A model generated the notes under the pieces. It was given only the letters and a program-made list of their open reading frames with translations, did no database searches and was not told the origin of the DNA. Of a stretch of 64,000 nucleotides of DNA, positions 49,865 to 52,176 are shown piece after piece. The stretch comes from a candidate division FCPU426 bacterium. GTDB taxonomy: Bacteria > Oederibacteriota > PGYV01 > Palsa-1178. Positions within the stretch are counted from its first letter, which is position 1; every line of letters begins with the position of its first letter. Made by a program: the position numbers and the translations under genes. The stretch covers positions 640,001-704,000 of the forward strand of contig CAWIXE010000002.1 of NCBI GenBank assembly GCA_963840035.1, in the 5' to 3' direction.

Positions 49865-50647
49865 ATGGCTGTCAGGAAGAAAGTTAAAAAACCGAAGAAG
49901 AACGGCTCTTCAAAGGAAAAAAATGAGATATTAAAGCTGAAGGAAACCATCAGGGAAAAGGAAAAGGAAATTGAGACCTTAACCGAGATAAGCAAGTCCA
50001 TAGTATCCGGCAGGTATCTTGAGGAAATCCTGAACATTGTAGTATCCCTGACGGCTGAAATGATGGATTCCAAGATTTGTTCCATCATGATACTTGAAAA
50101 AAATCAGCAGGAGCTTAAGATAATCGCCACGCAGAGCTTAAGCGAGGATTACAGGCATAAGTCGAATATCCCTGTGGGGCAGTCGATCTCCGGCAAGGTA
50201 GTCCTTGAAAAACGGCCCATTACTGTTTTGAACGTCACGAAGGAAGAGAATTACATGTTCAAGGAGATAGCGAAAAAAGAAGGGCTTAAATCAATGCTCG
50301 CGGTGCCCATGATGCTCCGCGGAAAAGTCCTTGGTGTTATAAATATATATACAACCGAAGAGCACGTTTTTACGGAGAGCGAAATACGCATCCTGCAGTC
50401 CGTGGCAAACCAGGCCGCCATCGGCATAGAAAACGTAAAACTGGTAGAAGAAACATCGGTGGCAAAGGAAGCGCTGGAAACGCGCAAGCTCATAGACAGG
50501 GCAAAAGGCATACTGATGAATAAGCTGAAGATGACGGAAGACGCAGCATATAAGTCCATACACAAGAAGTCAATGGACTCAAGGAAATCAATGAAGGAAG
50601 TCGCGGAAGCCATAATACTCGCGATGGAAATGGAAAAGAAAGCATAA
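49865..50647 (+). CDS. GAF and ANTAR domain RNA-binding regulator
   Basis: GAF (SMLAVPMM...GVINIY...FTESE...VANQAAIGIEN) followed by ANTAR (LETRKLIDRAKGILM...EDAAY..I.K.SMD...M.EVAE.I). Confidence 0.93.
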   Translation: MAVRKKVKKPKKNGSSKEKNEILKLKETIREKEKEIETLTEISKSIVSGRYLEEILNIVVSLTAEMMDSKICSIMILEKNQQELKIIATQSLSEDYRHKSNIPVGQSISGKVVLEKRPITVLNVTKEENYMFKEIAKKEGLKSMLAVPMMLRGKVLGVINIYTTEEHVFTESEIRILQSVANQAAIGIENVKLVEETSVAKEALETRKLIDRAKGILMNKLKMTEDAAYKSIHKKSMDSRKSMKEVAEAIILAMEMEKKA

Positions 50648-50725
50648 GGAAAGTAGCGCGCAAATTTACGTCGGCAGGCCGCGGTCACAGCGCTGTGATT
50701 CCGGCCTGTAATAACAATTTCTGCT

Positions 50726-50779
50726 TGAACACACTGATGTGTTCAGACTAATGTGTACTTTGAGGCACAATGACGTGCC
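50726..50779 (+). promoter_or_regulatory. Twin-hairpin ANTAR target RNA upstream of gdhA
   Basis: TGAACAC-ACTGAT-GTGTTCA and GGCAC-AATGAC-GTGCC. Both hexaloops have A1/G4 and a C-G closing pair, with an 18-nt linker. Confidence 0.85.
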
Positions 50780-50835
50780 GGCGGCAGGATTGTCATTAAA
50801 TAACATAACAGCGCATACGAAGCAGGAGGGAATAG

Positions 50836-52176
50836 ATGTCGAATTATATAACTAAAGTGCTTGAAATTGTAAAAAAACGCAACGCAAACGAGCCTGAATT
50901 TTTGCAGGCAGTAACAGAAGTTCTCGAATCGCTTGTTCCGGTAATTGACAGGAACAAAAAGTACGAAGCAAACAACATTTTAGAGCGCATAACAGAGCCG
51001 GAAAGACAGATCATATTCAGGGTGCCGTGGATTGATGACAAAGGAAACATCCAGGTTAACCGCGGCTTCAGGTTCCAGTTCAACAGCGCGATAGGGCCGT
51101 ATAAAGGCGGAATCCGTTTACACCCATCAGTCAATGCCTCAATCCTTAAATTCCTCGGATTTGAACAGGTCTTTAAAAATGCCCTTACAACACTGCCTAT
51201 GGGCGGTGCAAAGGGCGGATCTGATTTCGACCCGAAAGGAAAATCAGACAACGAAGTAATGCGTTTTATCCAGTCATTCATGACCGAACTGCAGCGCCAT
51301 ATCGGGGCTGACACGGACGTACCTGCCGGAGACATCGGCACGGGCGGACGCGAGATCGGTTACATGTTCGGCCAGTACAAAAGGCTCCGCAACGAGTTTA
51401 CCGGAGTATTAACCGGCAAAAACCTCAAATGGGGCGGCTCGCTCATACGCCCTGAAGCCACCGGCTACGGCTGCGTGTACTTCGCGGAGGAAATGCTCAA
51501 AACCAAGAACGACTCAATGAAAGGCAAAACATGCGTTGTGTCAGGTTCGGGAAATGTCGCGCAGTACACAGTTGAGAAGGTAAACCAGCTCGGCGGCAAA
51601 TGCGTAACACTCTCGGATTCGGACGGAACCATATATGACAAAGACGGAATCACCGCGGAAAAGCTTGCTTTTGTCATGGAACTTAAAAATGAGAAACGCG
51701 GCAGGATCAAGGAATACGCGGATAAGTATAAAGTCGAATTCCTCGCGGGCAAAAAACCGTGGGGCGTAAAGTGCGACTGCGCGTTCCCGAGCGCGACGCA
51801 GAACGAAGTCGATGAAAAGGACGCAAAGATCCTTCTCGACAACGGCTGCAAGCTGGTAAGCGAAGGCGCGAATATGCCTTCGACACCGGAAGCCATCGAA
51901 GTATACCAGGCCAAGAAGATACTCTACGGGCCGGGAAAAGCCGCGAACGCTGGCGGAGTGGCGACATCGGGACTTGAAATGAGCCAGAACTCGCTTCGTC
52001 TTTCATGGACGCGCGAAGAAGTGGACACAAGGCTGCATAACATCATGATAGCCATCCACAAACAGTGCATCGACGCTTCAACCGAATACGGACAGCCGGG
52101 CAATTATGTAATGGGCGCGAACATCGCCGGATTCGTAAAAGTAGCCGATTCAATGATAGAACAGGGCGTAGTTTAA
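50836..52176 (+). CDS. gdhA: NADP-specific glutamate dehydrogenase
   Basis: [30 protein letters not shown] and GKAANAGGV motifs. Confidence 0.97.

Follow-up and report, generated by a model that had tools for sequence, protein, structure and literature searches.

A probable terminator-less ANTAR target between a GAF-ANTAR regulator gene and gdhA in a candidate division FCPU426 bacterium

The leader of gdhA, the gene of an NADP-specific glutamate dehydrogenase, in a candidate division FCPU426 bacterium is very probably a functional ANTAR target that works without classical antitermination. It carries tandem hexaloop hairpins of the ANTAR type and directly follows the gene of a one-component GAF-ANTAR regulator, the only ANTAR gene in the host genome (3.46 Mb, 98% complete). 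The match between this regulator and this leader is likely, judging from motif, adjacency and co-occurrence, and the binding is putative. A first-pass annotation of the DNA had already placed a target of the neighboring one-component protein before gdhA, which agrees with the motif and with the position of the single ANTAR gene. Coordinates refer to the window, that is, the whole stretch of 64,000 nucleotides that was analyzed, where the locus is laid out as follows.

49755..49783, plus strand: sigma70-type promoter TTGACG-17-TATAAT, consensus match 11/12, likely driving GAF-ANTAR and gdhA jointly
49865..50647, plus strand: gene of the GAF-ANTAR one-component regulator, 260 aa (Pfam: GAF 52-189, ANTAR 201-251)
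50818..50829, plus strand: Shine-Dalgarno (SD) region GAAGCAGGAGG of gdhA, read from the sequence, with AGGAGG at 50824-29 after an A-rich spacer
50836..52176, plus strand: gdhA, NADP-specific glutamate dehydrogenase, 446 aa (PRK09414 over cut-off)
52192..52223, strand not assigned: intrinsic terminator hairpin with A and T runs on its flanks, separating gdhA from the convergent glnK-amtB

The identities that the first-pass annotation gave to the upstream and downstream genes hold, with the Pfam domains and PRK09414 above their cut-offs. Both genes are likely co-transcribed, since a strong promoter of the sigma70 type precedes the regulator gene, no promoter-like site was found in the 188-nt gap between GAF-ANTAR and gdhA, and a terminator follows gdhA. 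This terminator was called by a program on the minus strand, while its plus-strand T run was read from the sequence. The closest relative, G004, has identical -35 and -10 words at the promoter before its GAF-ANTAR gene. The SD context G[CT]AGGAG is found in 11 of 15 gdhA leaders, compared with only 21 of 614 genes of the host genome, where it is rare. Two possible leader peptides in the gap (ATG 50737 and ATG 50751) were rejected, having neither an SD nor a counterpart in G004. The nitrogen genes around the locus include gltBD, a gene pair that we take to be nfnAB-like, glnK-amtB twice, and a type III glnA.

The ANTAR domain of the regulator (PF03861) scores 75.8 bits against a cut-off of 27.3, and the GAF domain is likewise above its Pfam cut-off. 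No Pfam match to a receiver (REC) domain was found in the protein, in which sensor and ANTAR are joined in one chain. The start codon ATG 49865 is consistent with 14 homologs, and 3799 homologs are found at E 1e-40 or better. Homologs with a named source, at 65-70% identity, carry the label Ca. Goldiibacteriota. The predicted structure (mean pLDDT 81.7) consists of a GAF fold followed by a long helix that leads into a three-helix ANTAR bundle, the long helices of the monomer model being residues 16-48 and 171-221. When the protein is aligned with EutV (6wsh), 7 of the 11 RNA-contact residues listed in the available text of PMC8934654 are identical, including all four that hold G4: R142, K143, K149, E160, Y164, M172, and R175 of EutV correspond here to R207, K208, K214, E225, Y229, M237, and R240. 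Of the remaining contacts, K147 is R and N173 is D here, and R168 and R177 differ, being H and S.

The N-terminal region has its best NCBIfam matches in PtsP (E 3e-19) and NifA (6.5e-15). In the ranking of GAF folds the cAMP-binding Lcd1 GAF comes first, with the PtsP GAFs 3ci6 and 3trc at ranks 2, 3, and 7; Lcd1 is also top by sequence, with GAF identities of only 24-26%. The GAF of NifA binds 2-oxoglutarate. Based on the likeness to PtsP/NifA-type GAFs and on the surrounding nitrogen gene cluster, a first guess at the ligand would be glutamine or 2-oxoglutarate. Glutamine is reported as the ligand of the PtsP GAF in the available text of PMC4848567. Across the order, regulators with a single GAF (~260 aa) and with tandem GAFs (~410 aa) both precede terminator-less gdhA leaders (loci L003-L031). 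No conserved hairpin that would suggest autoregulation was seen before the ANTAR gene in the 11 leaders viewed.

The hairpins of the gap, with the occupancies predicted under 12 folding settings, are the following.

50674..50709, plus strand: H0, a long hairpin with CAC[AGCGCT]GTG at its top, which makes a third A1/G4 hexaloop (core 50683-50700)
50726..50745, plus strand: H1, ANTAR-type hairpin TGAACAC[ACTGAT]GTGTTCA, predicted formed 0.93-1.0
50764..50779, plus strand: H2, ANTAR-type hairpin GGCAC[AATGAC]GTGCC, predicted formed 0.54-1.0
50780..50797, plus strand: degenerate hairpin whose 5' part is the 3' strand of helix P0

H1 and H2, both with A1 and G4 in their loops, lie exactly where the first-pass annotation had placed them. 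With two stems of at least 3 pairs, 6-nt loops, A1, and G4, they have the make-up of the dual-hexaloop ANTAR-target RNA class. Their linker of 17-18 nt falls within the 2-25 nt given in PMC8164766, but beyond the 5-12 nt of the eut leaders described in PMC3369931, as far as the available text of both goes. The element had been described as consisting of two hairpins, and both are present, but the leader holds three, H0 having been missed; the helix P0 and an anti-SD strand, described below, are also additions to that first description. In G004, the core of H0 is identical and its outer stem is replaced on both sides, which favors an RNA hairpin over a DNA palindrome; H0 as a DNA-binding palindrome is possible but disfavored by this two-sided change. 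An A1/G4 hairpin at the place equivalent to 50780..50797 occurs in 6 of 14 relatives' leaders (G022, G012, G023, G015, G020, and L145), and G016 has a similar one.

Taken alone, the uniqueness of the twin is weak proof. A strict scan of both strands of the 3.46-Mb genome for two A1/G4 hexaloops, with at least five Watson-Crick pairs per stem, returned a single twin, H1 and H2; however, about 1.2 are expected by chance genome-wide (3e-5 per given 188-nt gap), and strict twins with the other 15 loop-letter pairs average 3.6. A relaxed scan of the host non-coding DNA found only two twins, both in the gdhA gap, at a rate like that of other loop letters, and an Rfam search of the gap matched no family.

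Among 24 genomes of the order, 14 hold this gdhA, 16 the ANTAR gene, 13 both, and 7 neither, so that ANTAR is kept in 13 of 14 gdhA genomes and gdhA is missing from 7 of the 8 genomes without ANTAR. All 15 gdhA leaders of the order have two or more hairpins with the pattern C[R..G..]G, as do 8 of 2291 host upstream regions; the pattern itself, in its closing C-G and in allowing G at loop position 1, was derived from the very leaders counted. These leaders comprise those of the 14 order genomes and the metagenome leader L145: in 80 of the 207 metagenome loci there were five ANTAR-gdhA loci, and four repeats (of G004, G011, G016, and G022) were dropped. Each leader stretch was taken from 20 nt ahead of its first hairpin onward, and three of the genomes belong to a single genus. 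A check set beforehand in the first-pass annotation, on whether relatives with the regulator keep the hairpins, gave hairpins before gdhA in 13 of 13 order genomes with both genes.

Across the families of the order the hairpins are kept with paired changes, while the linkers diverge. Counted over 36 distinct hairpins, the pair third from the loop is C-G in 18, U-A in 8, G-C in 8, and G-U in 2, and there is free variation at loop positions 2, 3, 5, and 6. This conservation, together with the joint retention of ANTAR and gdhA, makes it very unlikely that the hairpins are relics of an attenuator that has been lost and play no part today in the control of gdhA, a reading that would fit the lack of a computed switch and the hairpins found in two genomes without a detected ANTAR gene. 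One of these is G014 (82% complete), whose leader hairpins are present with no ANTAR gene detected; the other, G065 (80% complete), belongs to another order. Both also count against the activation mechanism put forward below.

A terminator is what the order lacks. In a uniform test, a U-tract terminator overlapping a hairpin was found in 0 of 15 leaders of the order versus 8 of 12 in other orders of the phylum. The 8 terminator leaders are those of all 7 ANTAR-positive genomes and of G065, which has no ANTAR match, while the 4 terminator-less outgroup leaders come from two families with 0/31 and 0/11 ANTAR matches and contain no twin. Since the terminator leaders include every ANTAR-positive outgroup, antitermination, and hence activation of gdhA, is the state of the sister orders, and the order studied here kept the hairpins and lost the terminator. 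This order-wide loss of the terminator is a new point. With no terminator at the position used by the sister lineages, the protein likely controls gdhA in another way, as the first-pass annotation had anticipated in setting this leader apart from classical intrinsic antitermination.

Several observations in the relatives stand beside this comparison. The gdhA leader of G029 (L135) combines a classical-terminator ANTAR site at -298 with another twin that lacks a terminator and stops just short of the SD. In L016 (2221-3311), L021, L009, L159, and L168, the gene after GAF-ANTAR encodes a conserved protein with no Pfam or NCBIfam match in its first 338 aa, and one to three pre-folded ANTAR hairpins without a U-tract lie upstream of it; in L150, a twin with a terminator precedes a gene resembling that one. 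In one family of the phylum (L017, L019, L024, and L026), a tmRNA-like sequence, recognized by eye, directly follows the GAF-ANTAR gene.

Two further elements overlap the hairpins of the leader.

50715..50725, plus strand: switch strand CAATTTCTGCT, with 50784-92 as partner (helix P0) or, via 50718-25, the SD region at 50821-28
50769..50797, plus strand: alternative stem, exclusive with H2, with the terminator-stem topology of the sister orders and no U-tract

The alternative stem and its missing U-tract are both found where the first-pass annotation had put them: 50769-75 pairs with 50791-97, enclosing 50776-79 with 50783-86, at -9.2 kcal/mol versus -8.5 for H2, and the sequence that follows is AAATAAC, not a U-tract. 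Its proposed role as a switch fares less well. Although the pairing is valid, the stem is predicted near zero until the SD is transcribed and at 0.19-0.36 afterwards, when H2 falls to ~0.55. In 4 of 14 leaders the H2 loop is predicted to pair with sequence downstream of it at a value above 0.2 (0.21, 0.46, 0.63, and 0.88), and the alternative stem is conserved only in part. The ribosome site itself is not covered by it. As long as transcription has not reached the SD, helix P0, which closes H1 and H2 into a junction, is predicted at 0.94; later, the pairing of 50718-25 with the SD region is predicted at 0.89-0.99. In G004, P0 is kept with changes and the SD pairing is weaker.

Classical antitermination, in which the alternative stem would terminate weakly without a U-tract and the protein would prevent it, is the least probable of all the readings considered. 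The stem does have the topology of a terminator and is as stable as H2, and four U follow the equivalent place in G004. However, the U-tract is absent from all 15 leaders, the host genome has ordinary U-tract terminators, and the stem is near zero when it would be needed because P0 holds its strand.

The mechanism put forward here, tentatively and with considerable doubt about it as a whole, is that GAF-ANTAR activates translation of gdhA through the junction closed by P0. A GAF-ANTAR dimer would likely bind the leader hairpins and so likely switch gdhA on at translation initiation, its RNA binding gated by a nitrogen-status metabolite on the GAF domain, as the protein family suggests, with glutamine or 2-oxoglutarate as first guesses. 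During transcription, H1 and H2 are predicted to fold together with P0, so that strand 50715-25 is tied up and the SD is free. If the protein is missing, the strand is predicted to shift to the SD region, and the freed 50783-97 could form the alternative stem that removes H2. The dimer, bridging H1 and H2, would hold the P0-closed junction and keep the ribosome site open, which is the weakest step. Translational activation was chosen because it keeps the sign of the outgroups and because this is the only coupled two-state fold that the sequence offers. It is more doubtful still that, in the order as a whole, a former ANTAR antitermination switch became a pre-folded junction of several hairpins with no terminator, by way of which a GAF-ANTAR protein that senses a metabolite activates gdhA translation, as a third ANTAR output mode after antitermination and ribosome-site repression.

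The folding models show pre-folded hairpins, and no conserved thermodynamic switch of the ribosome site was found with them (15 leaders; 12 settings in the host and G004). In favor of the mechanism, the SD of the host leader is predicted mostly paired (unpaired at 0.01-0.30 over the 12 settings) and P0 forms first; however, the SD is mostly paired whether or not the hairpins are locked, so the model needs a preference of the protein for the P0 geometry. G004 gives the model poor support: its SD is mostly open in the predictions (0.34-0.89), and its anti-SD duplex is weak, at -6.9. Duplexes of this kind at -9.6 kcal/mol or better, which also favor the model, are present in 8 of 15 leaders, but the 8 best are not clearly better than shuffles (p 0.03-0.23). 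In 13 of 15 leaders, including the host (-0.16), locking the hairpins moves the opening of the ribosome site by no more than 0.32 kcal/mol; in G011 (-1.55) and G001 (-1.28 kcal/mol) it eases the opening, as the model would have it, but in none of the 15 does the effect go beyond shuffles (fraction of at least 0.08 of 25 shuffles). The linker of 17-18 nt, longer than the 5-12 nt of the E. faecalis eut leaders in the available text of PMC3369931, also counts against translational activation.

Another possibility, held to be rather unlikely, is translational repression, in which the protein on the pre-folded hairpins blocks the 30S subunit, either sterically or by spreading to a weaker hairpin at the ribosome site. 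It is suggested by R1/G4 hairpins over the SD or AUG in five other leaders of the order; counted by stems of at least 3, 4, and 5 pairs, they occur in 6, 5, and 3 of 14 leaders compared with 12.2%, 7.6%, and 4.5% of 998 host genes, an enrichment that is overstated because kin are not independent. The terminator-less twin of G029 points the same way, as does the last detected hairpin, which ends 21-46 nt before the SD across leaders. Repression by ANTAR proteins has been published for mycobacteria (10.1101/660928, available text), and gdhA of Geobacter is reported to be repressed under nitrogen fixation in the available text of PMC2995071. Under this reading, a shortage of nitrogen would switch gdhA off and, through sigma54, glnA and amtB on. 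In this window, however, neither the SD nor the start codon lies inside a hairpin and H2 ends 44 nt before the SD, and repression would mean that the sign of control has flipped from that of the 8 terminator-bearing outgroup leaders.

Activation at the RNA level is judged equally improbable. Here, the bound protein would shield the leader from RNase E/G or RNase Y, or would prevent pausing and Rho-dependent release at the U-less alternative stem. Its sign is that of the outgroups, the hairpins are pre-folded with no computed ribosome-site switch, and Rho, an RNase E/G-family protein, and RNase Y are encoded in the genome. On the other hand, the sequence reads as a short, structured leader in which no C-rich stretch for loading is evident, and no RNase J was found over the cut-off in the genome. 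Part of the case for this reading comes from a second leader, that of gltB.

39927..39938, plus strand: single hairpin GGC[AATGAT]GCC close to the start of the gltB leader, a possible secondary site

Single A1/G4 hairpins are present in the gltB leaders of 12 of 14 ANTAR-positive genomes and of none of the 4 ANTAR-negative ones; they sit close to the 5' end, mostly 90-195 nt from the start codon. G1 versions of the hairpin, seen by eye, persist in two ANTAR-negative genomes, G002 and G003, which counts against this reading and leaves the gltB site uncertain. Leaders of glnA (0/22 with a twin) and amtB regions (1/27) are not ANTAR targets by the twin test.

Translational activation, the preferred reading, would act in a locus with a second layer of nitrogen control. 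A sigma54-type -24/-12 motif precedes the type III glnA (60972-60957, minus strand) and is seen by eye in most relatives, and a divergent gene for a GAF-GAF-AAA+-HTH activator lies beside glnA (61146-63254, plus strand); motif and activator form this second layer.

Other features of the window concern the genes nearby. Between gltD and the nfnAB-like pair (46174-47264, plus strand) lie a gene for a HAMP membrane protein without an output domain and, after it, an 86-aa ORF of no family. The two glnK copies (52521-52862 and 56500-56841, minus strand) encode nearly identical proteins, while the adjoining amtB genes are more diverged. Preceding amtB-glnK is a gene (54297-55139) that matches nothing in Pfam or NCBIfam and may in truth start at ATG 54998; ahead of it is an 18-codon ORF with its own SD (55078-55022, minus strand). 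Between glnA and the second amtB (~58300-58720), palindrome-rich tandem units of ~120 bp are seen by eye.

Known systems, cited here from the available text of each source, share parts of this arrangement. EutV and the Enterococcus faecalis eutP/G/S/A leaders (PMC3369931, PMC8934654) have in common with it the G4-contacting ANTAR residues and the tandem A1/G4 hexaloop hairpins. EutV, however, is a phosphorylated response regulator and its P2 hairpin overlaps a U-tract terminator, whereas this system has a GAF sensor and a terminator-less leader with three hairpins and a longer linker; in the E. faecalis eut leaders the linkers measure 5-12 nt and one of 14 nt lowered induction (PMC3369931). 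NasR from Klebsiella oxytoca and PAL from Nakamurella join sensor and ANTAR in one chain, as here, and NasR likewise serves a nitrogen pathway, but their sensors are NIT or PAS-LOV domains instead of GAF, and NasR antiterminates (PMC7496416). The GAFs of EI-Ntr (PtsP) and NifA (PMC4848567) are the best NCBIfam matches of the sensor, but identity is 24-26% and Lcd1 ranks first.

The targets of Rv1626 (PdtaR) and of actinobacteria are terminator-less, as is this leader, and under post-transcriptional control (10.1101/660928, PMC8164766). The tested mycobacterial targets enclose the ribosome site and repress, whereas the intact hairpins here stop 44 nt short of the SD. Untested targets that have an alternative fold ahead of the ribosome site are mentioned in 10.1101/660928. 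Geobacter sulfurreducens, with GnfL/GnfM and GnfK/GnfR (PMC2995071), also has two nitrogen layers, a sigma54 activator and an ANTAR protein, but in that species gdhA answers to the sigma54 regulator and antitermination by ANTAR serves other genes, whereas here glnA has the sigma54 motif and gdhA the ANTAR site.

ANTAR antitermination, mycobacterial ribosome-site repression, and many terminator-less targets are already published (PMC3369931, PMC8164766, 10.1101/660928, PMC12591593), with ~70% of predicted ANTAR RNAs lacking a terminator (PMC3369931). A literature search, with subscription journals mostly outside it, found no study of a one-component GAF-ANTAR protein acting on gdhA and no paper on an ANTAR target with a third hairpin. 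The words "gdhA" and "glutamate dehydrogenase" are absent from 7 text supplement files of PMC3369931, whose tables may list locus tags only. GAF-ANTAR proteins are common, yet NasR and PAL are the only characterized one-component ANTARs named in a 2020 paper (PMC7496416), and one ANTAR gene with one clear target offers a clean test pair for finding the ligand. For the mode of action of terminator-less ANTAR RNAs, gdhA, wired with a terminator in the sister orders and without one here, provides a natural comparison. As judged by its motif, the leader belongs to the class of ANTAR-target RNAs and not to the classical antitermination leaders.
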